Shown: positions 30,048 to 46,200 of the stretch, piece after piece
Position numbering within the stretch: position 1 is the stretch's first letter
Layout: each line of letters begins with the position of its first letter
Origin: a virus
Virus record (IMG/VR): IMGVR_UViG_3300042311_000577
Coordinates: 32,001 to 96,000 of that record
Length of the DNA: 64,000 nucleotides
Reading direction: 5' to 3' (one strand)
Translations under genes and position numbers: made by a program
Notes under the pieces: model-generated
What the model was told of the DNA's origin: nothing
What the model saw: the letters and a program-made list of their open reading frames with translations, nothing else
The model's database searches: none

Positions 30048-30060
30048 AATTTTTTAATTA

Positions 30061-30105
30061 TAAAACTATTAAAATTTTTTAAGTTTACTAAACATAGAAA
30101 GTTTA
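30061..30105 (-). promoter_or_regulatory. Putative promoter TTTA-N20-TAGTTTTA with dyad TAAAC-N7-GTTTA
   Basis: Same 20-nt spacing as four other intergenic motifs; resembles the Bacteroidota -33 TTTG / -7 TAnnTTTG promoter. Confidence 0.5.
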
Positions 30106-32547
30106 CATGATAAAAGGATTCCATGAATCTACATAAACATAACCTCCATTTGCATAAAGCTGGCCTCCAAACTTACCTTTTAATTCTTTAAGTGCTAAGT
30201 AATTTGCCTTCTCATAAGTCATACCATTTCTCATATGTTCTCTAACTATATCTTCTTTGGTAGGACCAGTTGCTCCAGTCAATGGTTTTTCAACTCCAGT
30301 ATGATACATCATTCCATAATCATATTCTGTATTAAACTGTGGAGTAACTTGATTTCTATTATACACGTTAGCCATTTGATCATTAGCCTCCATTACAGCT
30401 CTTGTTGTATTAAAGTTTCTTTTAGTTTTAAGAGCACTACTTAAATTTTGGTCTCTAGCTTGATTTGCTAATCCTTGATTCAATATGTTAGTTCTAGCTT
30501 CATTTACAGCCATATCCATTTGTCCCTTTCTTGCATTGACTGAATTTTGAGTATTTACATTTCTTGCTTGTACATCAGCTACTGCACCTACTCCAGCATT
30601 TAATGCTTTATCTAGTAAGTCACCCATTTGTTTTTGTTTATCAGCTGTAGAACCTGCTTGTGAATACATGATTGCATTTTTCATATTATTAGCTGCTGAA
30701 TTTGCAGCATGTAATTTTGCATCAAATGATTCATAAGCACCAGATGTTTTTGCATCAGGAGGAAGAACAACATTTGTACGTGCTACACCTGTATTAGCTA
30801 AAGCGTTAGTTAAAACATTAAGTTTTGCATTAACACTCCAACGTGGTTTATCAGCAACTTGTCCTTGACTTCCATCTTGACAAACACACTGCTCTTCATT
30901 TTCAATAGGAAATTCTTTTACTTCTCCTGTTACAGGATCAGTACATCTACAAATAAGAGATTCTGTTTCTCCACCACATGATGGATCATCAGTTATACAG
31001 TTTCCATTTTCATCTTTTTTTGCAACTTTTGGTGTACCATCTTCATTGTTTATTGTATTTCCATTTTTATCTTTACAATAACATGGTTCATCATTAGGTT
31101 CATTAACTATATGTTCAGCAATTTGTGATTTACCTTTTACACCTTCAATACAATCTTTATATATACCACCAGCAGCAGGATCACTAATTATTGTGTTTAT
31201 TGCTTTTTGTTTTGCTTCTTCCCATTTTGGATTTGGATTACCGCTAGCATCAGTTGGTCTTTGACCATCTAAATGACCTGGGAAAACTCTTACTAACATA
31301 TCATCAATATCTAATGATGCTTGTATTTTTTTACAAACACCATTTGCAATAGCTACAGGATCACCTCCTCCACCGCCACCACCATGCCAAGTAACTGCTT
31401 GACCTTTAACAATTTTGTATTGACCTTTTGTTCCTATTGAAGATGTAGAAGGAATCCAATCTGAACCAGAAGAAAGTGAACTAACTTGTTTTGAACCAAT
31501 GTTATTTACAGTAACTTGACTATCTCCGGGACCACCAAACTTAGGCATACCACCGTAAGCCATTTGTTCAGGATGATAAGGAAAATCATATCCACCCATT
31601 TGCATTCCATAAGCCGCATATGGTATTCCTCCATAAGCCATCATACCAGGTTGTTGCATCATTTCTGGAGGAGGTATACTACCTTGCATTTGAGCCATTG
31701 ATTCTGGTGAAGCTACTGGAGCTCCACTAGGCATTTGTTGTGGTGCAGCCGGAGCTTGTTGTGCTCCTTGATTCATCATTGCTTGATCTGCTTCCATAGC
31801 TTGCATAGGATTAGTTTGTTGCATTTCTTCTGCTAACATTGGATTTTGTTCTTGCGGCATTTCAGGATTAACACCTTGATTCATTGATTGGGCTAATTGA
31901 TCAGCTTGTTCTTTTAACTCAGGCATTAAATCTTGTTCAGAAATTCCATTAACTTCCATATAAGGTTTAGACATAGCAGGAATACCTTGAGGAAAACCTT
32001 TCATTGATTCTTGAACTAAAGCTAAAGCACCTAACTTCATGATAAAGTTTTTGATCATTATAGTAGCAGTATCTCTTTCTAGTTTACCACTATCAGGATC
32101 TAATAATATAGACTTATATTTATTTATGTTATAAGGCTTTGCAAGTTCTGCTGGAGTATAACCACCTTTCTTAGGTGTTTTATTAAACATAGCAAGAACA
32201 TTTGCATCATTTATTTTTAATGAAGCTGTGTCACTAAAGATAAAAGTATCATCAGGAAGATTTAAAGGAACACCTCCTTCATGATGTCTTTTACCAATAA
32301 TCTTTAAATGATCAGGAATTGATTGACCACTTATAGGACCAAATGCAGTTTCCCCACCTTCAGCTTCTAGATTTGCTTTATCTCTTGGTACAGCACTTAG
32401 TGTATCTTTAACTCCTTCATAAGATCTACCATCTAATTTTCTATAATCAGCTCCACCGAAGGCACCTGGTTTTAAAGACAATGAACCATCAACCTGCTTT
32501 CCGTAAGCAGCCTTATCTAAAGGTAATTTTGTTATTTGAACTCTCAT
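30103..32547 (-). CDS. Virion cargo protein
   Basis: 814 aa; N-terminal NLEAEGGE...GKRHHEGGVPL...FIFSD block; Q/M/P-rich linker; repeated MAYGG motifs; Cys-rich insert. Confidence 0.65.
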   Translation of the reverse strand: MRVQITKLPLDKAAYGKQVDGSLSLKPGAFGGADYRKLDGRSYEGVKDTLSAVPRDKANLEAEGGETAFGPISGQSIPDHLKIIGKRHHEGGVPLNLPDDTFIFSDTASLKINDANVLAMFNKTPKKGGYTPAELAKPYNINKYKSILLDPDSGKLERDTATIMIKNFIMKLGALALVQESMKGFPQGIPAMSKPYMEVNGISEQDLMPELKEQADQLAQSMNQGVNPEMPQEQNPMLAEEMQQTNPMQAMEADQAMMNQGAQQAPAAPQQMPSGAPVASPESMAQMQGSIPPPEMMQQPGMMAYGGIPYAAYGMQMGGYDFPYHPEQMAYGGMPKFGGPGDSQVTVNNIGSKQVSSLSSGSDWIPSTSSIGTKGQYKIVKGQAVTWHGGGGGGGDPVAIANGVCKKIQASLDIDDMLVRVFPGHLDGQRPTDASGNPNPKWEEAKQKAINTIISDPAAGGIYKDCIEGVKGKSQIAEHIVNEPNDEPCYCKDKNGNTINNEDGTPKVAKKDENGNCITDDPSCGGETESLICRCTDPVTGEVKEFPIENEEQCVCQDGSQGQVADKPRWSVNAKLNVLTNALANTGVARTNVVLPPDAKTSGAYESFDAKLHAANSAANNMKNAIMYSQAGSTADKQKQMGDLLDKALNAGVGAVADVQARNVNTQNSVNARKGQMDMAVNEARTNILNQGLANQARDQNLSSALKTKRNFNTTRAVMEANDQMANVYNRNQVTPQFNTEYDYGMMYHTGVEKPLTGATGPTKEDIVREHMRNGMTYEKANYLALKELKGKFGGQLYANGGYVYVDSWNPFIM

Positions 32548-32551
32548 GTGT

Positions 32552-35500
32552 TTATATAAATTTTATTTGACCACCAGCAGCAAGTATTTTTCCTATCTCT
32601 TCTTGAGTAAGATCATATACTCCACCTTTCCTATATTGAGATTGCCCACCTCTTCTAAAAAATGCTGACTCACCTACATTACCAATAAAAGCAGTTGAAC
32701 CTTCACCAGCTCCTTTTGAACCTTCTTTACCTTGTTCTTCATACCCACCACCTACATCTGTTTGTGTAGGATTTACTCTATTATCAGAAGTAGTTAAATC
32801 ACCCATCCAATTTTGAGCATATTGATTTTTTCTTCTATTTCCTCCACCAATTAAAAGTCCTGATCCTAATTGTTTAAGATTACCAATTGCTTTTGGTCTA
32901 AGTGTTCTTGCAGTTTCAATTTCATACTTTGTAGTAAAATCTTGTGGTGTTCCTTGAACTTGTTTAGTATAATTTTCATTATAACATATATCACCCGGTC
33001 TTGCATTTAGCACTTGTTCTTCTGTACACGGACCAGCACCAATATTTGTAACACCACCTGCATTAGGATCAAAAGGTCCTGACCCACTAAATTGCCCACC
33101 TGGATCAAATGAAGGCATATAACCTCCATAAGCCATATAGGCTGGTACATAACCACCTTCTTTTTGTACAAGATTACTATAGCCTTTTTGTTTTGCCCAG
33201 TTATCAAATGACCCATATTGTTTTTTGTTAGGTTCATTTTCCCACATTTTATATACATTACCTGCAGCTACAAGTTCTCTATTTCCAAGATCCTTTGTAT
33301 TTTGTACTCTACCTGCAATTTCTTGTACACCTGCACCACTCATACCAAAACCATTACTGTTTCTTTGTTGCTGTAATTGTTGTTGTCTTTGAGCTTCAGC
33401 CATTCTTTGTTGTTCTGCAATTTTAGCTTGTTGAATATCATAAGCTTTTTTGTCAGCTACTTGTTTATCTCTATAAGAACCTTCTGACATACCATCCATA
33501 GTACCCATCAAATTCATATCATCATTGGTAGCTGCACCTTCCCAAGGATCAGAATATTCTTGAAAATTTCTTGCCATTTCTGGTTGCTGAGTAGGAATCT
33601 CTTGCATACCTCTTGCAGGTAAACTACCAGGATTTTCATACAAACCTTCTGTAAATCTTTTTAAGTCAGTTTGATTAGGATAAATACTATTATTACCTGT
33701 AGCCTGATTGAATTCATTTCCAACATTTTGATTCATTGCAGCATCAGGTGATGCCCCTGGTCTAGGTGCAATTTGACCTTGCTCTATTAAGTTTGTATTT
33801 TCTTTTGCAATTGCTTGTGGAGATCTATACCCTGGCATACCAGGAATACCTGCTAATAAATTTTCAGCTTCAGCAAATGTCATTTTATTTTGTGACGGAT
33901 TTGCATTTGATAAATCAGCAGTATTAGAAAAAGATTGCTGATTCTGCCAAAACTGAGAAGGTTGTAAATTAGTTTCTGAATTAGATGTTCCAGTTGCTGG
34001 ATTAGCATTAACAGCACCTTTATTTCCTGTTGTACCTTGTAAAGCATTATTACCAGCACCTACTGTTATTGGTCTTGTAGGAGCTGGAGTTTGATCTTCA
34101 ATTGCATTCATTGCATCAGTCTGATCTCTCCAACTCATGTTCTCCCATGTTTCTTGATCAAATCCGTATCTTTCTGCTTGTGTTTTTCTTGGTTGTTCTG
34201 GTGCTGTAGAACTAGTTGCACTTGCATCAGATGCGGTTGTTGCGGTATTAGTAGCTCCTTTATTTTCATCACCTGGTAATACCATTGGTGCATGCCAATT
34301 ACTTGTATTAGTATTAGTATTTGCTGTATTTGTATTTGCAGTATTAGTAGTTGTTGTTGCATTAGCATTTGGTTGCGTTGTTACAGTTGCATTAGGATTG
34401 TTAGGATCAAACCAACTATTTTTAACTGTTAATGTTTTTTTACCAGACCACCATGGACCTTTTTCATATTTCCATTCACTAGGCATATAACCTGGTGCAG
34501 GACCAGACGCTGTTGAACCTTGTCTTGGTTGTGGTTGACCTGATTGTCCTGGGATATATCCTCCAGGAACTTTAACTATATTTCCTTTAGCATCTCTAGG
34601 AAAATCAATTTGTCTTGCCCATCTAAAATCTTTTTTTATTGGGTTAAACATATCTAATAACTGTTGTCCAACAGATGGAGCAGTTGGATATGCATATGAT
34701 CCTCCACCTTGTGTAGTATTTTGTGTTTGAGTAGTAGTTTTATTTTGGTTATTTATTTCATTTTGTTTTTTAAGCCAGTCAGCTTCCCAAGTTTTCTTTT
34801 CTGTTTCAAGTCTTTTTTTATACTCATCTTCTGTAAGATCTTTCCAAGTAGTTGCTCCAGGATTAGTATTTGCTGTATTTACTTGACTATCATTAGGACC
34901 AGCAAATCTATATAAACCACCATTCCTAAAATAAGGATCCATTACATTTTTAGAGTCATCAGCATATGCATTGTCATATGCAACAATTGGAGATATCGGC
35001 ATTTCATTACCTCCATAGACAAACTTCTGAAGATTACCATAAGGATCCATCTGAGGATTAGCCACAGGTCCCCCAAATTCTTTACCTGAAATAAATCTTT
35101 GTTTAGCTTTATTCCAACTATCTAATGAGTATCCTAGTTTTAAATATTCTTCTTCAATACCAGGAGCATCCATCATAGCTGGATTATTTTTTATAAGTTC
35201 ATATAATACTTCTTCATCCGGATCAGGAAATCTAGATTTAAACTCAGAATTATAAACATTAGGATCAGTATTATCAGGAGAAGCAGCATTAGGATCTAAA
35301 GCATCAACTTGTGCATCTTGAGGTGTCCATAGACCTGTTAAATAATCTACTTGTTCTTCAGGAAATTCTCTAATTACTCCAGCATTTGGATCCGCAGTTG
35401 CATTAAATTCTCCAGGGTTAATTACAGAACCTTTCATCCATGGATACTGAGAAGTTTCAGCTTTTCTTCTTGCAGCTTCATCTGGTGAGATAGCTTCTAC

Positions 35501-36883
35501 TTCATTACCTTGTGCATCATAAACCATTTCTGTTCCAGCAGGAGCAGGATTTAATTCCATATAACCAGGATATGATTTAGTACTATTAGCATTATTATTA
35601 AGAGTAACATTATTATTTTTTGCAGGATCTGCTGCATTATTTATTACTCTAGATTTAGTTCTTATGATTTCACCAGGATAACTTCTTGATGTACTCCAAG
35701 ATGAACTATAACCACCCGGATAACTTCCCGGCATATAACCATAAGAAGGACTTCCAAACATACTCATAGGAACTCCTTTAGCAGTCCATTCTCTTTTTCC
35801 TGTCCACCATGGTCCTTTTTTATATGTTAAATCAATCAAAGGTCCTGTTTGACCTTGTGTTGTTTGACCTGTACCTTGACCAGATGCTTGAGGATTTTGT
35901 ATAATATTTGGACTAATAACTTGTAAATAGTTAGGCATTCCTGGGACACCGAAATAACCAGCAGCTACATCTCCAAACATATTTTGGAAATCTTTTTGAG
36001 CTCTTTTCATTTCTCTACCTCTTCTTGCTTCTGGTATATTTTCAAAACCAGCACCGTGTATTTGATTCATAGGTTGTTTAAATATATTTGATACTGTATC
36101 AGAATAAGCTTTAAGATGATGTTCACCCGCTTCAGGGTCTCCCGTTTGTACTTGCATACCATCTTGACCCATAGGTATTCCAGATTGTTGCTTTAAATTA
36201 TTCATTGTGGTAAATAATTTTTTAGCAATACCCTCATTTCCTAAATCTTTTACACCTCTTCTAAATGCATTAACAAATGCTTGTCTACCATCTATTGTGC
36301 TATCTAGAGTAGAGGATTGATTTGATTGATCTTGTTCAAGGCCTTCACTAGCTTTTCTTAAACCTTTTACAATATTTTTTACAAATTTTCTTTTATTCAC
36401 AGTTCCTCCTTTTTTTTCTTTATCTAACTCTTCATCCTCTGCAGTTACTTCCTCTTCAGTATCTTCAGCTTCTGTATCTTCATCTTCTTCTTCATAATCT
36501 GCATAAGGATCATTCTCACTTACCCAAGGTTCATTTATGTTATATAAAGGTTCTCTTTTTACAGGTTCTACTTCTTGATCTTCAGTTTCTTGATTGATTA
36601 TATTTTCACCAGTGTCAAGAGTTTGATCCATGATAAAACTTCTAACTTCTTCAATCTTATCTAAAGCTTCTAATGGATCTAAGTCATATTCATTTTGTAG
36701 AGTGTCAATAATATCTGAGTTGTCTTTATTAGCACCGAGCTCATTCATTATAGTTTCCTCAATGTCATACTCATTCATTTTCATCTGCATCCCATACCGT
36801 GCTTTTGGTAAACCAGTAAACTTGTTTAGTTTGCTAATAAACTTACCAGTACTTCCACCAGCTTTGTAAATTCTAACTTTCAT
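32552..36883 (-). CDS. Low-complexity virion cargo protein with many xxGG motifs
   Basis: 1443 aa, N/Q/T/G/P-rich and probably largely disordered; located in the cargo block. Confidence 0.6.
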   Translation of the reverse strand: MKVRIYKAGGSTGKFISKLNKFTGLPKARYGMQMKMNEYDIEETIMNELGANKDNSDIIDTLQNEYDLDPLEALDKIEEVRSFIMDQTLDTGENIINQETEDQEVEPVKREPLYNINEPWVSENDPYADYEEEDEDTEAEDTEEEVTAEDEELDKEKKGGTVNKRKFVKNIVKGLRKASEGLEQDQSNQSSTLDSTIDGRQAFVNAFRRGVKDLGNEGIAKKLFTTMNNLKQQSGIPMGQDGMQVQTGDPEAGEHHLKAYSDTVSNIFKQPMNQIHGAGFENIPEARRGREMKRAQKDFQNMFGDVAAGYFGVPGMPNYLQVISPNIIQNPQASGQGTGQTTQGQTGPLIDLTYKKGPWWTGKREWTAKGVPMSMFGSPSYGYMPGSYPGGYSSSWSTSRSYPGEIIRTKSRVINNAADPAKNNNVTLNNNANSTKSYPGYMELNPAPAGTEMVYDAQGNEVEAISPDEAARRKAETSQYPWMKGSVINPGEFNATADPNAGVIREFPEEQVDYLTGLWTPQDAQVDALDPNAASPDNTDPNVYNSEFKSRFPDPDEEVLYELIKNNPAMMDAPGIEEEYLKLGYSLDSWNKAKQRFISGKEFGGPVANPQMDPYGNLQKFVYGGNEMPISPIVAYDNAYADDSKNVMDPYFRNGGLYRFAGPNDSQVNTANTNPGATTWKDLTEDEYKKRLETEKKTWEADWLKKQNEINNQNKTTTQTQNTTQGGGSYAYPTAPSVGQQLLDMFNPIKKDFRWARQIDFPRDAKGNIVKVPGGYIPGQSGQPQPRQGSTASGPAPGYMPSEWKYEKGPWWSGKKTLTVKNSWFDPNNPNATVTTQPNANATTTTNTANTNTANTNTNTSNWHAPMVLPGDENKGATNTATTASDASATSSTAPEQPRKTQAERYGFDQETWENMSWRDQTDAMNAIEDQTPAPTRPITVGAGNNALQGTTGNKGAVNANPATGTSNSETNLQPSQFWQNQQSFSNTADLSNANPSQNKMTFAEAENLLAGIPGMPGYRSPQAIAKENTNLIEQGQIAPRPGASPDAAMNQNVGNEFNQATGNNSIYPNQTDLKRFTEGLYENPGSLPARGMQEIPTQQPEMARNFQEYSDPWEGAATNDDMNLMGTMDGMSEGSYRDKQVADKKAYDIQQAKIAEQQRMAEAQRQQQLQQQRNSNGFGMSGAGVQEIAGRVQNTKDLGNRELVAAGNVYKMWENEPNKKQYGSFDNWAKQKGYSNLVQKEGGYVPAYMAYGGYMPSFDPGGQFSGSGPFDPNAGGVTNIGAGPCTEEQVLNARPGDICYNENYTKQVQGTPQDFTTKYEIETARTLRPKAIGNLKQLGSGLLIGGGNRRKNQYAQNWMGDLTTSDNRVNPTQTDVGGGYEEQGKEGSKGAGEGSTAFIGNVGESAFFRRGGQSQYRKGGVYDLTQEEIGKILAAGGQIKFI

Positions 36884-36900
36884 AATAATGCATTATATAC

Positions 36901-36944
36901 TAATATACTAAATTTTAATTTAATTGATAAACTTACTAAGTTTA
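36901..36944 (-). promoter_or_regulatory. Putative promoter TTTA-N20-TATATTA with perfect dyad TAAACTTA-C-TAAGTTTA
   Basis: Intergenic; fixed 20-nt spacing; palindrome at 36928-36944. Confidence 0.55.
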
Positions 36945-39488
36945 ATCTAATTCTTCTACTATGTAACCTTGATCTATATATTCTTTTATTTTACTTTTAG
37001 GTATGTCAAGTTCTATATAGTTATTAGTTGATCCACCTTTCTTTTGTTGTGGTAAGCCATTAGAACCTTCAAATGGATTTGCTAACATAGTTGCAGTACC
37101 AATTATACCAGTTGTTGGAATTGCTATACTATATAATTTTTTTAAATAATCTTTTAATTCTTTTTGATTATATATTTGTCTAAGTTCAGCAATATCTTTT
37201 GGTATTTTACCTGCTCTATTTAATTCAATAACTTGATTATATGGCATATCCACTAAATCATCAATAGATATACCAGCTTCTTTAGAATATAAAATTGCAC
37301 TTATCCCTCTTTGTCTTGCCTCATCTGGACTACTATAATAGCTTATCAAATCATCATAAGCTTTATTTCCAGATTCTTTACCCCACTTAGTCCAATTTTT
37401 TAAAGTTTCCTCATCTAAACTTAATTTTGGTAAATTTTCTAAGAGCTTTCTATTTTTATCATCATATAAAGATGTATGCCCATATTCATGTGAAACAACA
37501 TATTTAGAATCCGGTCTACTCAATCCAGTACTTGAAAAATCTATACCTAATTTTGTACCAGAAGCATCTGCACCTGCAGAATACGCCATTGCATCACTTT
37601 CAAGAGTACCGGAATTTTTAGATTTAACATATCTAGGTTTTGTTTTATTTATAGCATTTATTAAATTATTTTGATAATTATGTGCATCCATAAAAGATAG
37701 TCCAGGTATTCCATTTTGAAGTCTTCTGTTATACTCACCAGAACTATAAAAATCTAATAGTTGTTGTTTACCTGCTTCAATGTTTGCTAATTGTTCTTGT
37801 GTTGGATTATAGGCTGAATTATATGTATCTTCTAAAGCTTTTCCATACTTATCAGGTTTTGCCTCTATAAATAATTCCCAATCTTCTTTTGATCTACCTG
37901 TTTTATTTAATATATCTTCATCAGGTAATTTTAAAATTTGTTCAAAATTTAAACTGTAACCCTTTTTACCAACATCATCTACAGAAGGAATAGCATTAGA
38001 AACTTCAACAGGTGCTTTTGGCTCTACTTGTACTAGTGATTCTTTATTATAACCTCTTTTACCAAAATCAAAATTACCTGTCTCAAGTCTTTTAAGTTCA
38101 TTAAATTGAGCTTCAGTAACCATACCATCTTGTTTTTTACCTGTCTCAATTAAACTGTTATAAAACTTTCTATCACTAATAGACATTTTTTTACCATCAT
38201 AACTATCTAATAGTTGCTTATAGTAATTCATGTTTTTCTTAACCATATTACCACTACTACCAGTAGGCATACCTAACATGAGTGGTCCAGGAGGTCTATC
38301 AAAAAATTGCTTTAATCTATTAGTTATAGATGTATTAGGAGAACCTGGTAATTCAGTTGGTACTTCTTTATATCCTTTTAACCAATGTTGTTTTAATAAT
38401 CTTCCTTCAGATACAGGTACTTCAGCCATGTCTGCTATCCATGGTGTATATTCACCAGATGCATTAGCTGGTGATACAAATGGCATACCTTCTTTATTTA
38501 CACCTGATGTTTCAAACATAACAGTTGGTCTACCATGTGCACCAGAACCAGTTTGTTCTAACATTGATATATCTTTACCTTCAACAAAATAAGGTCTTGG
38601 ATATGTTGCTTGGTCAGCACTTTTAATAACTCCTGTATTTAATGCATCTTCTAAACCTTTATTACCAATCTGTCTATAAAATTTGTTTGGATCTTCTTTA
38701 AATGCCCACGGATTTATTTTATAAGCATTTTTTATAGCTGCTCCTGCAAATGGTGCTGTTTGTAAAACATCCATTCCTATTTGTCCTGCACCACTCCAAG
38801 ATGGATCTTTAGCAAAATCATATACATCAGGAGCTAATCTTGCTGCACCTTCCATAGCTCCTATTGCCATTCCAACCGGAGTCATGTAAGCAGCAGCTTT
38901 AAATACTGGATTATTAACTACTGCAGCATTTCCTTCTATAGCAGCTTGATTGATTGCCTCTTGATTTATTCTATCAGCCTCTTCTTTGCTAGATGCATAT
39001 ATAGGTTCACCTGTAATTACATTAGTACCTTTAGCTTTACCAAAAGTTGCTGGATCAAATCCTGCATCTATAATTGATTGTCTATATGTATCTTCAGACT
39101 CCCATTTATTTCTCAGTGCTTCCTGTTGTTTTTTTTCTTTTTCTCTTGATGCTTTAGTTTTATCATCTAGTTTGGTTACTGATTGTGGTTGAATTTTATC
39201 TAGTCTAATTAAAGCTCCTGATTCTGGATCAAATCCCCATTTACCACTATATAATCTATCTTTTATTTGATCATTGTATTCTGGAGTTATTAAATTACGT
39301 ACTTCATTATTTGTAACATGCATGTCCCAAGCAGCTACACCATCAATATATTTTTTATCATTTTTTAATGTATATAACTTAGCACATTTAGTTCCGTTCC
39401 AATAAGTTCCAGTAGGACAACTTTTTTTATCACCCCCTTTTGCAAATTTATTTAATGATGGTATACTTGTTATTCTATACTTTTTCAT
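36942..39488 (-). CDS. Modular cargo protein with an ART-like module and a zincin (HEYGH)
   Basis: 848 aa; FYRQIG...PYF module at about 38360-38730; HEYGH at 37476-37490 with downstream YYSSPDEARQR. Confidence 0.6.
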   Translation of the reverse strand: MKKYRITSIPSLNKFAKGGDKKSCPTGTYWNGTKCAKLYTLKNDKKYIDGVAAWDMHVTNNEVRNLITPEYNDQIKDRLYSGKWGFDPESGALIRLDKIQPQSVTKLDDKTKASREKEKKQQEALRNKWESEDTYRQSIIDAGFDPATFGKAKGTNVITGEPIYASSKEEADRINQEAINQAAIEGNAAVVNNPVFKAAAYMTPVGMAIGAMEGAARLAPDVYDFAKDPSWSGAGQIGMDVLQTAPFAGAAIKNAYKINPWAFKEDPNKFYRQIGNKGLEDALNTGVIKSADQATYPRPYFVEGKDISMLEQTGSGAHGRPTVMFETSGVNKEGMPFVSPANASGEYTPWIADMAEVPVSEGRLLKQHWLKGYKEVPTELPGSPNTSITNRLKQFFDRPPGPLMLGMPTGSSGNMVKKNMNYYKQLLDSYDGKKMSISDRKFYNSLIETGKKQDGMVTEAQFNELKRLETGNFDFGKRGYNKESLVQVEPKAPVEVSNAIPSVDDVGKKGYSLNFEQILKLPDEDILNKTGRSKEDWELFIEAKPDKYGKALEDTYNSAYNPTQEQLANIEAGKQQLLDFYSSGEYNRRLQNGIPGLSFMDAHNYQNNLINAINKTKPRYVKSKNSGTLESDAMAYSAGADASGTKLGIDFSSTGLSRPDSKYVVSHEYGHTSLYDDKNRKLLENLPKLSLDEETLKNWTKWGKESGNKAYDDLISYYSSPDEARQRGISAILYSKEAGISIDDLVDMPYNQVIELNRAGKIPKDIAELRQIYNQKELKDYLKKLYSIAIPTTGIIGTATMLANPFEGSNGLPQQKKGGSTNNYIELDIPKSKIKEYIDQGYIVEELD

Positions 39489-39490
39489 AA

Positions 39491-42400
39491 TTAAATTTCT
39501 TCAAATGTATAACCTAAACTTTCTAAATAGTTTTTAGTAGCTTCATCTACTTGATCACCTAATTCATAATTTACTACACCGCCCTTTTTATAATCAGATA
39601 ATAGTTCATATGGATCTCTATCTGGATTTTCTTCCCATTCAGGTGTTTGATGATTATAAGCGGCATTATTTATATTTCCTATTTTAAACCATTCAGTATA
39701 ATACGGTGGTTTTTTTAGTATAGCATTATTAAAGACATAAAAAACTTCTTTATCATATAAGTTTTGTGATACCTTTTTAAAATGATTTTGCATTTCAGCA
39801 GGACTCATTAATAAGTCTATACTATTTGCAGATCTTAAATATACTGTATTTACATCACCTAATTTTCTTTTGTTAAGCATATTTGCTATATCATAATCAA
39901 ATGACATTGGTATAGATTCTACATCTAATGGTAATGCTGATTTCCCATGTTTCTTGAATGTTTTAATTTCTGATGGTATATCTGTAGCAATTACTTTAAT
40001 ATTTTTCTTTTTAATATTCGGATTACTTGCAAGTTCATATGTAGATACACCAGCTAAAGCAGGATTAGAGTTTCCTAAACCTGAACCAATATCAATAATT
40101 ACAGAGTTAGCTCCTGCATGATCTGCAAAGAATAATTCAGAGTCTCTGTTTCTTTTAACATCTGTTCTATTCATTATATCCTGACCTTTCTCTGGGAATA
40201 GTCTATATTTTGTATAATCATTGAGCTGTCTATTTAGAACATCTTTATCATTAACACCCTGCCCTTGAATATTTTTATAAGGATTTTCATTTAGTGATTC
40301 AGGATTAACTAAGTTATATACAGAAGGATTATCTGAACCTTTAGTAAAGTAATTTAATGATTGACCTAAATCAGTATCTTTCCAATCTTTTAATCTTACA
40401 TTTGATTTAGGTTCTACTATAGGTAGATTTAAATTTCCAGAACTGTTCATTCTATTTTGAGCTTGAACTTTTTCAATATTCTGACCTTGTGCAAATGTAC
40501 TTGCTGCATTATTTGATATAGGTTGAGAAGATGGTTTTCTAGTTATAGATGGTGCAGGTATATTAGACTGTTCATAAATGTTACCTTTCATCATATTAAC
40601 TAGCATAGGATTAAGATCACTTTTATTTGCTTTAGGTGCATTACTAGTTTGTACTACTGGTGCAGCAACATTATATGCTTTTGGATCAAATGACATTAAT
40701 TCTCCTGTTATAGGATTTTTTAAACCAAAAGTTGTTTCTTTTGGTTTTTGTTTTTTTGGTGTTTCTTTTTTAGGAGTTGTTTTTTGAGGCTTTGGTCTTT
40801 CATATGTTTTTGTATTCCAAATAGCTCCTGTCATTAAATTAGAAGATGAACTAGGTTTTTCAGGGCCGGCTGCATATTTTGCAGATAATCTTTTAGTAGG
40901 TTGACTAGGTTTGCTTTGACTTTTCTTATTTGCAAATAGTTCTGGAAATCTATAAATCAAACCTTCTCTGGTACCTATCCTTTCTCTAACTAGTTGGTCT
41001 AAACTGTAACCTTTATCAACTAGATCACCAACCATTTTATTATATCTCTTATCGTCATTCTCATCTTTAGCAACAGAAGTTTTTGGTTCACCAAATTCAC
41101 CAGCTAATAATCTTTTATGTAGTTCAATGTTTTTAGTATAACTACCATCTGTTAATCCTTTCTTTTTAGCTTGAGACCATGGAGTACCTGTAATGTTTTC
41201 CCATTGTTCAGAAATTGTACCACCTCCTGCAAATTTATTCAATGTAGATATAGCACCACCTACTTTAGAATACTGTGGTATATTCTCATCACCTTCTTGT
41301 TGAGGTTTATTTTTAGAAATATTTTGTAGCATCCAAAGAATCTCTTCATCATTGAAATCTCTTCTTAAATCATTAATTGGTTGCATTGGTTGCCAATTTT
41401 CAGAATCTCTTTCTTTGTTTATATAATTTTGAAATATTTCAGGAGTTATCTGTTCAGTAAATGGATCATATACACCTTCTTTTTTTGCAGTCATTCTAAT
41501 TTCACCAAGTCTTGCTCTAGTTTCATGAGGTGATGATACATAATCATGAGCAAAAGATTTCCAATTTTCTGGTGCTTTTTGCTTTCTAATTTTTGCATTT
41601 TTAGTATCCCAATCTACCCAGTCTTTTAATTTTGTATTAAATTCAGGATCTTCAGGATTTTCACCCATTTCAATCATTTGATTTTTCCAATACTCTTCAC
41701 CTTTTGGTAAATAGTTTCCTTTTTTTTGAGCTATTTTATAATCTTCATTATCTTTCCAATTAGAACCTCTATGTGTAGTAATATACATTGAATCAGAAGG
41801 TGGTATTACTCTATTATGCCATTCTGGAGAATCTTGCGGAAATCTTGGATCTTTATATAACATCCAATCTGGATAGTTTTGTATTGTATCATTATCATTA
41901 ACATACCAACTATTTTGTGTACCAGCAGCCATGTTAACAAGTTCAGGTGTTGCATTAGACAATTTTACACCCATATTATATGCAGGATGATCAGCTTTAA
42001 ATAACTCTCTTGGTCTATCTGATGAATGGATTAATTCATGTGTATATAAAGTTGGACCATATTCATATCCTCCTGGAAATACTTCAACTTGTCCTGTATC
42101 ACTAAAAGACCAGGCTGCTGGTTGTATTCCATCTGACTGTTCTTCTGATTCTTTTTCCATTATGTTTAATGGAGGTAAGTCAGCTAGATTTTTCTTTCTT
42201 AAACTTGTTAAGTAGTCTGCATTTTTTTGATTACCTTGAAAACTATTTAATACCATTTGATTATACATAGGTGAATCATGCCAGTCTTTAACAAACTGCA
42301 AACCTTCTTCATAATATTTAGGTTCATTTACCTTAGCAGTTTCAATTGCTTGTAATCTTTCTTGTTCTCTATTATATGCATCTATATCAGTTAATTCTTG

Positions 42401-43219
42401 ATCTGTAAGATCTTTAGTTGTAATAGGTTCATAATAAAGTTCTCCTGTTTCAGTTTTTGGTAAATCAAAAGGTTCTTCTGAAGGATTTAAAATTTCAATA
42501 GATTCATTTTGAGTTACTGGTTTTTCATTTTTATTTCTTCTTAATTTTTTAGATTTTTTATCTTTTGAACCACCGTCTATAAATCTATTTAAAGAAGGTA
42601 TAGAAGGATCATCTATCTCTTCAACTATATAACCACCTTCAACATATTTTCTTATTTGATCTTTAGTAAGTTCTGCTTCTATAAAACCTGGAGAAACATC
42701 TTTATAATGTTCTGCAAAATAAGCAGCATCTTCATCTGAATCAAATCTCATGGCTTCATTAGATTCTGGACCATAGTCACCTAACATTAACTGACCATTT
42801 TCATCTTGAATTTGAGGAACAGCATAGTTATCTATACTTGCCATATAGTGTGTACCTGTATTTCCATTTTCAAATTGATATGGATTATCAGGTAGGTTAA
42901 TCATTCTTTTTGCAGCAGGATTTCCAAACTCATTAGCATAAGCTAGTCTAGCTTTCATCATACCAGTCATACCATCCTTTTCACCACCATTATCAAAGTA
43001 CATGGATGTTGGATCATATATTTTCTTCTTGTAATTCTTTTTTTTAAGCAAAGGATTTTTTGCAAACAATCTATTTGTAGCTTGAAGATTACTAGAAAAC
43101 TTTTTACTACCTCCTTTTTTCATCTGAGGCTTATCTAAGTCTGAATCTTTTTTTTTAGCTTCTGGTTCCTTCTTGCCTAAATCATTAAGTGCTTGAAGAA
43201 AAAATTTTTTATTATACAT
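39491..43219 (-). CDS. Modular cargo protein with a zincin (HELIH) and a SAM-methyltransferase-like domain
   Basis: 1242 aa; HELIH at 42026-42040 with YVSSPHETRAR; VIIDIGSGLG...VIATDI near the C-terminus. Confidence 0.6.
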   Translation of the reverse strand: MYNKKFFLQALNDLGKKEPEAKKKDSDLDKPQMKKGGSKKFSSNLQATNRLFAKNPLLKKKNYKKKIYDPTSMYFDNGGEKDGMTGMMKARLAYANEFGNPAAKRMINLPDNPYQFENGNTGTHYMASIDNYAVPQIQDENGQLMLGDYGPESNEAMRFDSDEDAAYFAEHYKDVSPGFIEAELTKDQIRKYVEGGYIVEEIDDPSIPSLNRFIDGGSKDKKSKKLRRNKNEKPVTQNESIEILNPSEEPFDLPKTETGELYYEPITTKDLTDQELTDIDAYNREQERLQAIETAKVNEPKYYEEGLQFVKDWHDSPMYNQMVLNSFQGNQKNADYLTSLRKKNLADLPPLNIMEKESEEQSDGIQPAAWSFSDTGQVEVFPGGYEYGPTLYTHELIHSSDRPRELFKADHPAYNMGVKLSNATPELVNMAAGTQNSWYVNDNDTIQNYPDWMLYKDPRFPQDSPEWHNRVIPPSDSMYITTHRGSNWKDNEDYKIAQKKGNYLPKGEEYWKNQMIEMGENPEDPEFNTKLKDWVDWDTKNAKIRKQKAPENWKSFAHDYVSSPHETRARLGEIRMTAKKEGVYDPFTEQITPEIFQNYINKERDSENWQPMQPINDLRRDFNDEEILWMLQNISKNKPQQEGDENIPQYSKVGGAISTLNKFAGGGTISEQWENITGTPWSQAKKKGLTDGSYTKNIELHKRLLAGEFGEPKTSVAKDENDDKRYNKMVGDLVDKGYSLDQLVRERIGTREGLIYRFPELFANKKSQSKPSQPTKRLSAKYAAGPEKPSSSSNLMTGAIWNTKTYERPKPQKTTPKKETPKKQKPKETTFGLKNPITGELMSFDPKAYNVAAPVVQTSNAPKANKSDLNPMLVNMMKGNIYEQSNIPAPSITRKPSSQPISNNAASTFAQGQNIEKVQAQNRMNSSGNLNLPIVEPKSNVRLKDWKDTDLGQSLNYFTKGSDNPSVYNLVNPESLNENPYKNIQGQGVNDKDVLNRQLNDYTKYRLFPEKGQDIMNRTDVKRNRDSELFFADHAGANSVIIDIGSGLGNSNPALAGVSTYELASNPNIKKKNIKVIATDIPSEIKTFKKHGKSALPLDVESIPMSFDYDIANMLNKRKLGDVNTVYLRSANSIDLLMSPAEMQNHFKKVSQNLYDKEVFYVFNNAILKKPPYYTEWFKIGNINNAAYNHQTPEWEENPDRDPYELLSDYKKGGVVNYELGDQVDEATKNYLESLGYTFEEI

Positions 43220-46200
43220 TACCTTGGGGACATTTGAGTTTTAGTATTAACAATTTTCAAGATCATATTTGTATCTCTTGAATCATTTTTTATAAGCTTG
43301 ATGAAATTAATATAATGTCTAAATTTCTTTCTTTCTAATAAAGGTTTTGTATAATCTAAATTCAAAGGATTTAATATTTTTACATAACCATTAACTGATG
43401 TGACCCATATATTTTCATCTGAATAGTTTCCTAATAACACTGTAGATTCTGGAGCTGGTAAATAAGGACCTTGTCCAGGAGGATATCCTGATCCAATTGG
43501 AAACTCACCTCTATCTTTTGTTATATCCCAGAATTGATTTATTCTGTATTTGTTTTCCTCTTTAGAGTAAAGGATGTCATAACTTGCTTGATTAGTATTT
43601 AATCTTGGAAACTGTAATGATAATGGTATGTCATTTTTAGGATAAAGATTTAAGTTAAGGTATCCGGATGCTTGTTCAGAATTAAATACTATAGCTTGAT
43701 CAAAATTATAATCTAGTACATGATACTGATCCACACATATGTTACGGTCCCTTCTATATGCCTCTAAATAGTATTCTAAACTTTTAATAGTATTTACTAC
43801 TTGAGCAGTTACCACCGGTAACTCAACTTCAAAAGGATATTGCACCCCATAGAAATTACAGTAATCATTACAATTAACACTATGTTTCCAAATACTATTA
43901 TCTTTTATAGTAAAGAATGATCCTTTACTTGGCACATAAAAGTTAGGATGCCAATCATGAAATGATAACCAGTACTGCATTTTTGGATCATAACTAACTG
44001 TCCATGAAGCATCTTCAAAATATCTTTTATCACCAATCTTAGCTTTAAGAATTGTTGATACACCACCATTCTGAGTTTTAATTAAAAAGTTATCATTTAC
44101 ATTATCATAAGTTACTAATCCTTTATATTCATCTTTTAATTTATAATCTTTTTTAGAAAAGTATAAAATACTATTATCATTATCATAACTTGCTGAACAA
44201 CCAATACCAGCTACAGGATTATCTGTATGTGGGTATTTTGGAAAATCTTCAAGAAGTTTGAATGGTAAAAATTCACTAAACCACCATTTCATTCCTGTTT
44301 GAGATATTTCTTTTAAACCTTCAGCATATGAAAATATTTTACCTTGGTTCTGTGAGATATAAAAAAGTCCAGCCGGAGTTGATACTACACCATATTTATT
44401 TTGTGATGAACCATACTCATATGGTTTTTCAGCAACAACAACATTTTGAGGAGGTCTTGAAAATAAGTTTTGATCACCTACGGTAACTGCAGTACCACTT
44501 GTATCTAATTGTAAAGTATCAGTACCTTGAAAAACAAGAGGACTATCATTTTCAAATGTTATAAACATACCTGTCTTAGCAAAGTTTTTAACTGAGCTTA
44601 GAGTACTTTTAAAGTCTACTCTATTTAGAGGAAGGTATGTTAGCCATCCGTCTATAATCTGATTCTCTTGTTGTTTTAATGAATATATAATTCTATTTGG
44701 ATATGATGTATAACATAACTCTGCAACATTTGGATTATATGTTGTACCTTGTAAATAACCTTGTGTAAAGTATTGATTGAATATAAATCTTGATGCACTT
44801 AATGAATAATCATAAGCATAAAAATTACCTCTAGCTAGTATATCAGGATTTGAATCAAACAATGATGGTAGATCTGTATACTTATATTTACTATAAGGTC
44901 TTTGCCAAGTAAATGTACCAACATCTCTAAAATCTGTAATTACTTCAGACTCAACAAAGAAATCTCTAATACCATTTGCTGAAGTATAAAAGTATGAATT
45001 TTTAACAGCTAAAAATCCTGGATAACCTGGAAACCACGTATTAACATTATATGCATAATTTCTATTATCCATATCATAATAACTAGATGGTACTAAACCA
45101 TCTCCATAATCAGGGTTATTAGAAAACCAAGTTAGTAAATTATTTAAGGTAAAATCACTTATATCCCATGGTTGACTATTTACTTGAAACTTAGGTTCAG
45201 GAATCATTTGATTTATAAAATAATTCCATTCTGTTTCATCCGGAACATTGTAAAGCCAATCAAAAAAGAAGTTCATTATATTCTTTTCTGTAAATCTATT
45301 TACATAAGTATCTCCTCCAAAAAATACAGGTGATGATGTAGATTTCTGTGTAAAATCATTTACTCCACATAGAGTACCATAATTTGATGTGGCAATAGTA
45401 TTTGGTCCAGTTAGCGAAATAAAATCTAATTTTTGTTCACATGGTGTAGCTACAACTTGTTGTATTTGTTCTAGTTGACCATATTGATTTTCTTTTCTAT
45501 ATTTAATTGCAACATAGTGACTTGCAATTTTATTTATAAAGTTTCTTCCTTTTCCTTTTTCAGTCCAACTAACTTTTCCATTTCCTGTAAAAGTACTATT
45601 CATTGCTGCTGGATTATGCGTTCTAATAGCATAACCTAATGTCATAAGAGATTGATCAGTACTATAACCAGTAGACTCAAGTATAAAATGTGGTCCTTCA
45701 ATATCACCTGAACCATCCCATTTAGTAGTTCTTAATACAACTAACTTAGGTCTTTTAATATTATTTATTCTATATTTTACCGGAAGACCTGTTGCATTAT
45801 TAATATACTCAGGTAATATTTGAACTTGATCATCTACATATTGACCAGAAGCCATGACAAATCTTTTAGGTTTAGTAGCATCATGTGGATCAAATAAATA
45901 GTATTCACCATAACCAACTTGTTCTAAAGCATACTGTCTTTTCTTAGCAATTGCATACATTACATCAACAGCAGTTTGTGTACCTTTAATAAAGTAATAC
46001 CAAAGATCTCCTCCTACAACTAAAGTATTTAAAAAACCATTTATGATAGGACCAAGCATTTGCTTACCCGTATATGTTTTTTCATAAGTTGGTAATGTAA
46101 AAGTATTAGAACCCCCAGAAAGTGTTGATTGTGCTGTTTGAAAAAAACCTGCAAGTGTATCACCTGGTGTAAATAAATCAGCTATTGGTGAGTATGTAGC

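Follow-up and report, generated by a model that had tools for sequence, protein, structure and literature searches.

Polyvalent proteins of phages and conjugative elements, as presented in the accessible part of the article by Iyer, Burroughs, Anand, de Souza, and Aravind (2017, PMC5512222), include giant phage proteins in which enzymatic domains of unrelated kinds are strung together, frequently with a zincin-like metallopeptidase (MPTase) domain among them. They are encoded beside virion genes and are thought to be delivered with the DNA. In Bacteroides phage crAss001, the gene that follows the muzzle gene gp44 codes for the cargo protein gp45. According to the accessible text of Bayfield et al. 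(2023, PMC10172136), the cargo proteins C1 (gp45) and C2 (gp46), of 90.8 and 60.2 kDa, are stored in capsid and tail and are proposed to leave N-terminus first and partly unfolded, and the authors regard it as likely that the order of delivery is controlled by packing and by cargo–cargo interactions.

Here we describe a 64,000-nucleotide stretch of DNA (the window) that is part of a 122,794-bp crAss-like phage record with terminal repeats. The source is likely an uncultured, environmental crAss-like phage whose virion-cargo locus lies within the window. Homologues of the window proteins combine unrelated enzymatic domains in the manner of polyvalent proteins, and among them the Pfam family ART-PolyVal is found. 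The first cargo protein, P0001, contains an HExxH..D cassette that resembles the MPTase domain with structural Z scores under 8; the placement of the genes matches as well, and delivery with the DNA would follow by synteny. A conserved joint module, end variants of it, and fission at joints were not found in the accessible part of Iyer et al. (PMC5512222), in which the words "linker", "crAss", and "Cellulophaga" do not occur. Enzymatic domains are not described for gp45 and gp46 in the accessible text on crAss001 (PMC10172136), in contrast to the enzyme cassettes of this clade. Unlike polyvalent proteins with named domains, the cassettes in the window itself have no match in Pfam.

Polymorphic toxins provide a further comparison. 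In 2012, Zhang et al. reportedly described border motifs in these proteins, such as PxxxxDPxGL in Rhs proteins and VENN in CdiA. The locus is similar in that a short conserved peptide stands at the border of variable cassettes exchanged by recombination. It differs by having several joints per protein, a small fold instead of a linear motif, and a phage particle instead of a secretion system; no immunity genes were seen.

Results and Discussion

The genes P0001 (39491-43219), P0002 (36942-39488), and P0003 (32552-36883), all on the minus strand, adjoin the tail ring and muzzle genes on the downstream side, as judged by Pfam context. The stop of the muzzle gene and the start of P0001 share 1 nt, P0002 starts 2 nt after the stop of P0001, P0003 58 nt after that of P0002, and P0004 4 nt after that of P0003. 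The features are as follows.

48630..49643, minus strand: gene for tail ring protein 1 (Pfam CrAss_Ring_1, E 6.2e-10; context)
43219..48630, minus strand: gene for the muzzle protein, 1803 aa (Pfam crAss_MUZ, E 2.2e-34; homologues in 77 of 80 related loci)
42722..43219, minus strand: P0001 residues 1-166, N-terminal head of the first cargo protein, basic and conserved (MYNKK...; segment clustering)
42548..42721, minus strand: P0001 residues 167-224, complete internal joint, type A module followed by DPSIPSLNRFIDGG (63.0 bits, independent profile)
41270..42547, minus strand: P0001 residues 225-650, predicted zincin-like cassette with invariant HExxH..D (homologues, AF2 model, structural neighbours)
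41210..41266, minus strand: P0001 residues 652-670, half-joint KVGGAISTLNKFAGGGTIS (position and context)
39611..41209, minus strand: P0001 residues 671-1203, second cassette (Pfam search up to E = 5 negative)
39494..39610, minus strand: P0001 residues 1204-1242, type B terminal module, KKGG..YELGDQVDEATKNYLESLGYTFEEI (alignment of homologue C-termini)
39432..39488, minus strand: P0002 residues 1-19, basic strand MKKYRIT followed by half-joint SIPSLNKFAKGG (17.5 bits)
38025..39431, minus strand: P0002 residues 20-488, conserved body, cluster A/D (segment clustering)
37047..38024, minus strand: P0002 residues 489-814, exchangeable cassette with HEYGH motif (blastn, BLASTP against the related locus L002)
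36945..37046, minus strand: P0002 residues 815-848, type A terminal module (55.4 bits)
36782..36883, minus strand: P0003 residues 1-34, basic strand MKVRIYK and ISKLNKF (27.2 bits)
32555..32650, minus strand: P0003 residues 1412-1443, type C terminal module (41.1 bits)
32446..32547, minus strand: P0004 residues 1-34, basic strand MRVQITKLP (26.6 bits)

In 75 of the 77 related loci with a muzzle gene, the ORF directly after this gene bears the joint module. The length of the encoded protein varies from 322 to 2789 aa across loci, and the region is split into one to three genes. P0001 starts directly downstream of the muzzle gene, at the same place as cargo protein C1 of crAss001, and no sequence match to crAss_CARG1 (PF25725) was found at E ≤ 1 across the whole 122.8-kb genome. 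In Cellulophaga phage phi4:1, the annotation of the four genes that come after the muzzle homologue names them as virion proteins on the basis of MS/MS. By synteny with crAss001 and phi4:1, P0001–P0004 are probably carried as cargo in the particle. None of the four proteins has a PHROG match at E ≤ 0.001 or a credible Pfam match (one sub-threshold match of P0002 scores 18.3 bits against a cut-off of 24.5). P0001 and P0002 match no PDB sequence at E ≤ 1, and P0001, P0002, and P0004 gave no tblastn match to INPHARED phage records, which were matched by the muzzle protein alone (~25% identity).

The joint is built around a conserved strand-helix-strand module of ~25 aa with Gly-Gly on both flanks. 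This module occurs within P0001 and also forms the C-terminal end of three proteins, P0001 (...KKGGVVNYELGD...LGYTFEEI), P0002 (...KKGGSTNNYIELDIP...QGYIVEELD), and P0003 (...RKGGVYDLTQEEIGKILAAGGQIKFI). An earlier sequence-only reading had pointed to these peptides, all of which were recovered in place on the minus strand. It had also proposed that the C-terminal modules resemble each other, that the following genes start with similar strands, and that both parts are fused inside the 1242-aa P0001. A type A profile built from homologues only, with the window and near-identical relatives left out, bears out the fusion with 63.0 bits for the internal unit (residues 167-224, 42548-42721) and gives 55.4 bits for the C-terminus and 17.5 bits for the N-terminus of P0002; the best score among 420 shuffled window proteins was 3.7 bits. 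The starts of the next two genes also read as described, with 27.2 bits for P0003 (profile built on 45 N-termini of other loci) and 26.6 bits for P0004, compared to at most 4.9 bits for shuffles in these independent profiles.

The C-terminal modules fall into several types. With the type A profile, the C-termini of P0001 (2.1 bits) and P0003 (5.3 bits) are inseparable from shuffled proteins; these ends are distinct subtypes of the module, B and C. Type B was found again in the alignment of homologue C-termini; for type C, a profile made from 29 C-termini of other loci gives 41.1 bits (shuffles ≤3.2). By profile–profile comparison (hhalign), type A is linked to type C with a probability of 92.8% (E 3.9e-7) and to type B with one of 74% (E 2.7e-5), whereas no link appears between B and C (7%). 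The peptide ISTLNKFAGGG, which the same reading had noted as a recurrence, lies at 41219-41251; it scores only 1.6–2.3 bits with the module profiles, and its context suggests a half-joint.

The module is a real and widespread family. The type A profile matches 928 protein-cluster representatives at E ≤ 1e-3, and 458 of them reach E ≤ 1e-10. Among the best 150 matches are 140 new proteins; 114 of these carry the module at the C-terminus, and 208 internal modules occur in the 140, with 2–4 per protein in 139. Most of these representatives, and related loci, also share the MYNKK-type head at the N-terminus. The position in the joint at which genes end is fixed and directly follows ..Y-I-V-E-E-x. 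For the terminal module of P0002, AF2 predicts with moderate confidence (pLDDT 55–69) a strand, a helix (831-839), and a second strand (844-847), and the flanks of the joint are predicted to be disordered. A Pfam search with 33 module sequences returned a best E value of 0.031, and all matches were far under the family cut-offs. In ESM Atlas, the best feature score for the joint was 0.75, which is under the level often reached by shuffled proteins. The module is absent from two named phages with a muzzle gene, Cellulophaga phi4:1 and Flavobacterium FPSV-S29 (all scores <0 bits). We found no description of it in the accessible literature, including PMC10172136 and PMC5512222.

What lies between the joints was assigned mainly in homologues. 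There, hmmscan confirmed SET, ART-PolyVal, VanY, CBM_14, GNAT, and phage lysozyme domains, and precomputed Pfam labels only indicate SLT and amidase domains. Such domains also occur as pairs in single homologues (SET with ART-PolyVal in P0063, VanY with CBM_14 in P0053). In the window, one single cassette could be assigned, that of P0001 residues 225-650, and the remaining ones match no family. This cassette has 45 homologous proteins, and H170, E171, H174, and D177 are invariant in 43 aligned cassette sequences. Its AF2 model (pLDDT 82.5, disordered flanks) has zinc peptidases or zincin-fold proteins as its best 13, and as at least 15 of its best 16, VIA structural neighbours, with Z values of 5.0–7.3 (i.e., under 8). 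This model-based comparison points to a zincin-like cassette. Foldseek returned nothing at E ≤ 0.001 for either this model or that of P0002. The HExxH of the P0002 cassette is kept in six of six proteins that cover the motif, a count that includes P0002 itself and the near-identical P0005. Residues 266-368 of P0002 are weakly Tpt1/KptA-like (VIA Z 5.0–5.5 to CC0527 and Tpt1/KptA-type chains), a likeness that we treat as a lead, not a finding.

The conserved HExxH..D cassette in P0001 and the second conserved HExxH in P0002 could mean that the joints are cutting sites of a polyprotein, at which the zincin-like cassette or another peptidase frees single enzymes; separately encoded forms would then mimic cleavage products. 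Autoproteolysis by such domains was indeed proposed for polyvalent proteins in the accessible part of Iyer et al. (2017, PMC5512222), and a cutting site would also agree with the disorder predicted at the joint flanks and with gene ends that match one fixed point of the joint. We nevertheless consider this processing quite unlikely. The zincin-like cassette occurs in 45 proteins versus 928 module-bearing representatives and is therefore not a general processing enzyme. Prohead proteases of the three families searched (Peptidase_S78, Peptidase_S77, and CLP_protease) gave no match at E ≤ 1 in the genome, and neither "cleav" nor "proteoly" was found in the accessible text of the crAss001 paper (PMC10172136). 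Cutting at the joints would also leave the type B module and the basic strands at the gene ends unexplained.

The module sits at cassette borders, and whole cassettes have been exchanged at it between closely related genomes. One such relative, L002, is 98.4–99.2% identical to the window outside positions 37046-38025 (blastn blocks). In its counterpart of P0002, the 326-aa cassette is replaced by unrelated sequence (BLASTP), and the right border of this swap coincides with the first residues of the C-terminal module. In the architecture map, the same P0002-like body is connected via the module with six or more different N-terminal segments and also occurs with no such segment. Among the 45 proteins with the zincin-like cassette, Gly-Gly precedes it in many rows and follows it in most, and the same place after the cassette is taken by a full module, a type B end, a Zn-ribbon-like piece, or a WLDKY peptide. 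Borders of recent replacements lie within 15 aa of a module in 17 of 38 cases (8.0 expected, P about 0.0004), and 71 of 550 breakpoint clusters fall inside the module (25.8 expected). A first test that used all BLAST end points gave just 2.5-fold enrichment, and the stricter versions were retained. The earlier proposal that the modules mark fusion and fission points between shufflable cassettes is thus upheld by the L002 swap, the bodies with at least six heads, the 17 borders near modules, and a domain content between modules that varies across relatives. It does not extend to the majority of homology breaks, which lie away from modules (479 of 550 breakpoint clusters, 21 of 38 recent borders). 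Since gene stops and starts fall at the module, the locus consists of one, two, or three genes depending on the phage.

The enrichment of swap borders at modules could be explained by a passive spacer that is inert in trans and kept since recombination at this site yields viable chimaeras, with C-terminal copies as relics of fission. The variety of joints that can occupy the same place (half-joint, WLDKY, Zn-ribbon-like) would be in line with such a spacer. However, 114 of 140 proteins end exactly in the module, dedicated end-only variants exist, and one would expect decay of a relic once it stands at a free end. Furthermore, because module copies within the window vary at many third-codon positions and share only short exact runs, selection acts on the peptide and not on the DNA, and conservation at the peptide level speaks against an inert element. 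We regard the spacer explanation as very improbable. A DNA recombination box within the genome was also considered as the main reason for conservation and was rejected on the basis of the same short exact runs and third-codon differences.

Free ends carry end-specific versions that are absent inside proteins, namely a type B or C module at C-termini and a basic strand at N-termini. Among 531 unique proteins, all 21 occurrences of type B are C-terminal, and three strand motifs are N-terminal in 19/19 (AKY[KR]ITxxP, the P0002-type start), 29/29, and 20/20 occurrences. The basic strand follows the pattern [KR]-[VY]-[KR]-I-x-K-x-P at the starts of the second, third, and fourth cargo genes. The sequence-only reading had taken these paired ends for C-to-N connectors. 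Its idea may be phrased as docking: the acidic C-terminal module would bind the basic N-terminal strand of the next cargo protein, which would give a noncovalent chain that enters or leaves the particle in gene order. The matched connectors would link separate cargo proteins head to tail, and the effector set would be threaded through the tail as an ordered chain. The principle would be that of modular polyketide and nonribosomal peptide synthetases (PKS/NRPS), which use C- and N-terminal docking domains to set polypeptide order, and these are dispensable when modules are fused.

Several observations agree with docking. Module and strand are paired at three consecutive junctions in the window. 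In relatives, the pair occurs at 84 of the 138 distinct junctions that lie downstream of the muzzle gene and at 0 of 226 upstream, with patterns that were written after seeing the data and counts that mirror conserved gene order in one clade and are not independent events. The charges are opposite, with means of −3.47 for the last 25 aa and +3.56 for the first 10 aa of the next protein (control genes: +0.49 and +0.47), and the end-specific elements are never internal. All 10 classified type B ends are followed by a MAKY[KR]IT start, with gaps between −14 and +2 nt (median 2), and so are the type-B-like ends of L028 and L051, which the pattern had missed. In one clade, a type C variant that lacks the last strand (..LIKLAGLNKK) is followed by an altered basic strand (KKLKKLP). 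The one natural fusion of genes 3 and 4, in L051 (1769 aa), has neither a type C module nor a basic strand where the two parts meet. This loss parallels the dispensability of PKS/NRPS docking domains upon fusion; those domains have no sequence or fold relation to the joint and act in another context.

Other observations argue against docking. The strand is kept at 11 of 138 junctions with no canonical module upstream, five of these with unrelated C-termini, and internal type A modules have no partner strand. Because gene order is conserved in one clade, the pairing may reflect few evolutionary events. Lys-rich protein starts are also common in AT-rich genes. Co-folding of the C-terminal module of P0001 (43 aa) with the N-terminus of P0002 (40 aa) gave 0.25 and 0.24 against a mark of 0.32, and counts neither way. 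On this sequence evidence, both binding of the strand by the module and an ordered chain of linked cargo proteins seem rather doubtful. If the connectors were true, fusion or fission of genes would merely trade a covalent for a noncovalent link.

The explanation that we favor, and consider fairly probable, is a polyvalent cargo of swappable cassettes in which the joint serves as in-frame crossover and hinge and the ends serve as terminal signals. What directly follows the muzzle gene, be it one gene or several (here P0001 and P0002), would encode a polyvalent protein made of independently folding cassettes, mostly enzymes. Each joint would consist of a Gly-Gly hinge, the acidic strand-helix-strand of ~25 aa, an S-I-P-x-L-N-x-F peptide, and a second Gly-Gly hinge. 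At the level of DNA and reading frame, it may act as a portable in-frame crossover point, such that swaps leave the neighbours intact. In the particle, the hinged mini-fold could keep the cassettes separate and thereby allow unfolding and one-by-one threading through the tail. By analogy, the end-specific versions would be terminal signals, with the acidic C-terminal module as a handle by which the protein is loaded into the particle or held there and the basic N-terminal strand as a leader for exit. Short terminal parts decide loading and exit in other packaged phage proteins, as with the capsid targeting sequence of T4 and, in the virion RNA polymerase of N4, the N- and C-terminal domains; the T4 signal is removed by a prohead protease. 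As in these packaged proteins, terminal parts and not the enzyme core would act as signals here; unlike in T4, none of the three prohead protease families searched was found, and there is no sequence relation.

The internal type A modules in fused proteins fit the idea of terminal signals only as relics or extra anchors.

Conclusions

These observations bear on how podoviruses choose, load, and deliver internal proteins in order. The clade offers a readable code for this process: a joint that delimits cassettes, dedicated C- and N-terminal elements at free ends, and natural junctions that are either fused or split. By exchange of whole cassettes between nearly identical genomes, a phage can vary the set of enzymes that it injects, and in laboratory strains the joints could be natural splice points for placing foreign proteins into phage particles.

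Genomic context

The source record comprises 122,794 bp with direct terminal repeats; the window corresponds to its bases 32001–96000 and carries all large genes on the minus strand. Pfam identifies a tail ring protein and a muzzle protein, and downstream of the latter lie four consecutive genes (P0001–P0004).

48630–49643, minus strand, crassvirus tail ring protein gene (Pfam)
43219–48630, minus strand, muzzle protein gene (Pfam)
39491–43219, minus strand, P0001, 1242 aa, downstream of the muzzle gene
36942–39488, minus strand, P0002, 848 aa, downstream of the muzzle gene
32552–36883, minus strand, P0003, 1443 aa, downstream of the muzzle gene
30103–32547, minus strand, P0004, 814 aa, downstream of the muzzle gene

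At best, named muzzle proteins reach about 25% identity (those of Leptolyngbya phage Lbo-JY46, Cellulophaga phages phi4:1 and phi17:2 and Flavobacterium FPSV phages), and therefore we assign this phage to an uncultured crAss-like clade. P0001–P0004 have no PHROG match at E ≤ 0.001 and no credible Pfam match; P0002 gives a single sub-threshold Pfam match (18.3 bits, cut-off 24.5). In crAss001 the muzzle gene gp44 is followed, according to passages of PMC10172136, by genes for gp45 and gp46, cargo proteins kept in the capsid and the tail, so that cargo genes occupy the same genomic place as the genes described here. Likewise, the four genes after the muzzle homologue of Cellulophaga phage phi4:1 carry MS/MS-based annotations as virion proteins. 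Because their position matches these genes, P0001–P0004 are probably cargo genes. This system shows no sequence match to crAss_CARG1.

Three giant ORFs follow the cargo genes (4028, 2145 and 2020 aa; window 8083–20169, 20180–26617 and 2021–8083). Of these, the 2145-aa protein weakly matches an exonuclease PHROG, and a LysM domain is present in the 2020-aa protein; judged by position, the three may be a virion RNA polymerase set.

A family of joint modules

The sequence-only reading had pointed to similar peptides at the ends of three consecutive genes and at the starts of those that follow, and every peptide it quoted is present where it was placed. The recurring element is a module of about 25 aa, a strand-helix-strand peptide flanked by Gly-Gly; together with a SIPxLNxF-type peptide it forms what we call a joint. 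In the 105 homologues of P0002 the C-terminal-type and N-terminal-type pieces are contiguous as one unit, in the order Gly-Gly, strand, helix (..T-x-E-E-I-x-x-Y-x-x-G-G), strand (Y-I-V-E-E-x), (N-D-)P-S-I-P-x-L-N-x-F-x-x and Gly-Gly. An AF2 model of the terminal module of P0002 shows a strand, a helix (831–839) and a strand (844–847) at moderate confidence (pLDDT 55–69), preceded by a disordered region (residues 790–823). Many third-codon positions differ between the copies in the window, so the peptide is the level that is conserved.

The proposed similarity of the modules proved significant. A profile built from homologues only scores the internal unit of P0001 (residues 167–224), the C-terminus of P0002 and the N-terminus of P0002 with 63.0, 55.4 and 17.5 bits, compared to at best 3.7 bits among 420 shuffled window proteins. 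The C-termini of P0001 and P0003 fail this profile (2.1 and 5.3 bits) and represent separate subtypes, B and C, next to type A. Type B (Y-x-L-G-D-x-V-D-E-x-T-x-x-x-L-x-x-L-G-Y-T-F-E-E-I) recurs at the C-termini of homologues, and type C scores 41.1 bits against a profile of 29 C-termini from other loci. In profile–profile comparison, A matches C (92.8%, E 3.9e-7) and B (74%, E 2.7e-5), and there is no link between B and C. The alleged likeness of the gene starts also held: with independent profiles, the start of P0003 reaches 27.2 bits and that of P0004 26.6 bits. The joint module has no corresponding family in Pfam, and the literature text accessible to our searches contained no description of it.

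Distribution and gene order

A profile from 33 joints matched the representatives of 928 clusters (50% identity) at E ≤ 1e-3, and of 458 clusters at E ≤ 1e-10. Among the top 150 are 140 new proteins, of which 139 carry two to four modules each and one carries none; they contain 208 internal modules, and in 114 of them the module is exactly the protein end. We then compared 80 loci, 78 from a module scan of viral contigs and two found separately. A muzzle homologue is present in 77 and a ring protein in 72; the three without a muzzle gene are cut by the contig end. The ORF directly after the muzzle gene bears modules in 75 of the 77 loci, the exceptions being L035, where an 88-aa fragment of the same gene intervenes, and L003, which uses another joint type. 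The module-bearing part comprises 322 to 2789 aa in one to three genes.

Gene order is common to the loci. Gene 1 starts with MYNKK.. and overlaps the muzzle stop. Where the polyvalent part is divided between genes, the first of them terminates in type B and the next starts with M-A-K-Y-[KR]-I-T-x-x-P, usually at a distance of 2, -1 or -4 nt. After a gap of about 58 nt, gene 3 starts with ..K-V-R-I-Y-K-A-P-D-G..; its C-terminus is of type C. Gene 4, with the start ..K-V-R-I-K-K-L-P-Q-A-R-T-G-Y.., follows 3–10 nt later. The window matches this order with gaps of -1, 2, 58 and 4 nt.

The spacer before gene 3 measures 46–60 nt (median 58, 45 distinct junctions; window 36884–36941) and that before gene 5 about 60 nt (window 30048–30102), while all other junctions span at most 10 nt; a promoter or some other signal may lie in the longer spacers. 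Four loci contain small additional ORFs directly before gene 5. Those of L035 and L036 begin with the same residues as gene 5 (MATY.Q) and continue with GIY..YIG-like sequence; L048 and L054 have an ORF of 164–165 aa with ..YYWLSQWNW.. and ..AAxAYD.. motifs. Both kinds of ORF may be homing endonuclease insertions.

A second joint flavour, G-G-W-L-x-K-Y, occurs at N- and C-termini of cargo proteins from another crAss-like lineage (L003 9299–10915; P0068, P0103, P0090, P0098, P0074 and P0289–P0291), for example in a 538-aa protein that starts with MKWLNKYQDGG and ends with NGGWLSKYN. A C-terminal variant, ..D-I-T-x-x-E-Y-K-R-I-L-N-Y-M-K-x-x-G-[YI]-[KN], is found in L013, P0111, P0122, P0194, P0237 and P0246 and looks like a module cut just before the last strand; in L013 the following gene starts with MKVRIYK.

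Cassette exchange at the joints

Splitting 109 proteins at the modules and clustering the fragments shows that the P0002-like body occurs behind no fewer than six unrelated N-terminal segments, as well as without any, and that VanY segments are appended behind an additional module. A recent exchange is visible between the window and the related locus L002, whose identity is 98.4% over 11.5 kb and 99.2% over 9.1 kb. L002 contains unrelated DNA in place of window 37046–38025. On the right, this swap is bounded by P0002 residue 815, where the terminal module begins; on the left it is bounded by ..GNFDFGKRGYNKESL, after which shorter homologues pass directly into a module.

Taken together, the loci show 38 borders of recent replacements, of which 17 are no more than 15 aa away from a module in either genome (8.0 expected; 0.04% of 5000 position shuffles reach 17, with some events sharing a genome). 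Both borders are at modules in four pairs (L016/L017, L023/L069, L056/L061 and L015/window). Distant homologues gave 550 breakpoint clusters, 71 of them inside a module, compared to 25.8 expected and a maximum of 44 in 1000 shuffles. This enrichment, about 2- to 2.7-fold, is real; the majority of homology breaks lie away from modules. Cassettes are exchanged, and genes split and fused, at the module. Segment shuffling, the L002 swap, the border enrichment and the one-to-three-gene splits all support the earlier suggestion of polymorphic cassettes with fusion and fission points at these elements.

Content of the cassettes

Homologue cassettes confirmed by hmmscan include SET, ART-PolyVal, VanY, CBM_14, GNAT and phage lysozyme; SLT and amidase carry precomputed Pfam labels only. 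This domain make-up is that of the polyvalent proteins described by Iyer et al. 2017 (PMC5512222); a search of that text finds neither "linker" nor "crAss".

P0001 residues 225–650 form a cassette present in 45 proteins, in which both His, the Glu and the Asp of HExxH..D are invariant. Its model (pLDDT 82.5) is disordered on both flanks. In a structure search, the 13 best rows, and 15 or more of the 16 best, are zinc peptidases or zincin-fold proteins, with Z of 5.0–7.3, below the safe level of the tool; Foldseek with the same model gave nothing significant. Gly-Gly precedes this cassette in many of the 45 proteins and follows it in most. The joint behind it varies between a full type A, a type B end, the half-joint ..ISTLNKFAGGG (P0001), a Zn-ribbon-like piece and, in some proteins, a WLDKY peptide of the second joint flavour. 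Gly-Gly is the border common to these joint types. A conserved, hinged mini-module sits at the cassette borders.

The zincin-like cassette raises the question of cleavage. Since P0001 brings its own putative peptidase, it is possible that the joints are cutting sites. However, this cassette occurs in 45 proteins, compared to 928 module-bearing representatives, S78, S77 and ClpP proteases are not encoded, and cutting would leave the end-specific elements described below unexplained.

A second HExxH in P0002 (residues 489–814) is kept in 6 of 6 proteins that cover the motif, including P0002 itself and the near-identical P0005. P0002 residues 266–368 (window 38385–38690) show weak structural likeness to CC0527 and Tpt1/KptA-type tRNA 2'-phosphotransferases (Z 5.0–5.5), which we regard as a lead only; in P0002 homologues ART-PolyVal is located elsewhere in the chain. 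The C-terminal part of the second P0001 cassette (window 39611–40000) contains a glycine-rich ..VIIDIGSGLGN.., which is reminiscent of motif I of SAM-dependent methyltransferases; Pfam gives nothing for this cassette up to E = 5. P0003 has a high content of N, Q, T, G and P and contains K-G-P-W-W-[TS]-G-K twice, P0003 and P0004 share a ..F-[AG]-G-P-x-D-S-Q-V.. stretch (direct repeat D7), and P0004 has one Met/Gln/Pro-rich and one Cys-rich region.

Gene ends and the possible role of the joint

Free protein ends bear dedicated module variants. In a set of 531 unique proteins, all 21 occurrences of type B are at the C-terminus, and each of the three strand motifs is confined to the N-terminus (19 of 19, 29 of 29 and 20 of 20). 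In P0107/P0109 a MAKYKII strand is found in cis, five residues ahead of a type A module. Downstream of the muzzle gene, 84 of 138 distinct junctions combine a C-terminal module with an N-terminal strand and 41 have neither, while none of 226 upstream junctions has both; these counts are descriptive and not a test, as the patterns were written after the data were seen and the junctions share ancestry. Two junctions have a module without a pattern match to the strand, although by eye both are strands. The remaining 11 have a strand without a canonical module: five with a ..LNKF-type half-joint or similar, one pattern miss and five unrelated ends.

The sequence-only reading took these elements as connectors by which the C-terminal module of one protein binds the N-terminal strand of the next. 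The end-only distribution favours such docking, as do the opposite mean charges of the last 25 aa (-3.47) and the first 10 aa of the next protein (+3.56; control genes +0.49 and +0.47). So does L051, where genes 3 and 4 are fused (1769 aa) and the junction contains neither the type C module nor the basic strand. Nevertheless, we consider pairwise docking rather unlikely, though a serious alternative. Independent terminal signals appear somewhat more likely, because the strand persists where the upstream protein lacks the module. As independent signals, a C-terminal handle would serve loading and an N-terminal leader exit; the N4 virion RNA polymerase provides an example of this arrangement.

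The system works in like manner to polyvalent proteins. The joint may serve as a portable in-frame crossover point and as a spacer that would let cassettes fold, unfold and traverse the tail singly, with the end variants acting as terminal signals.
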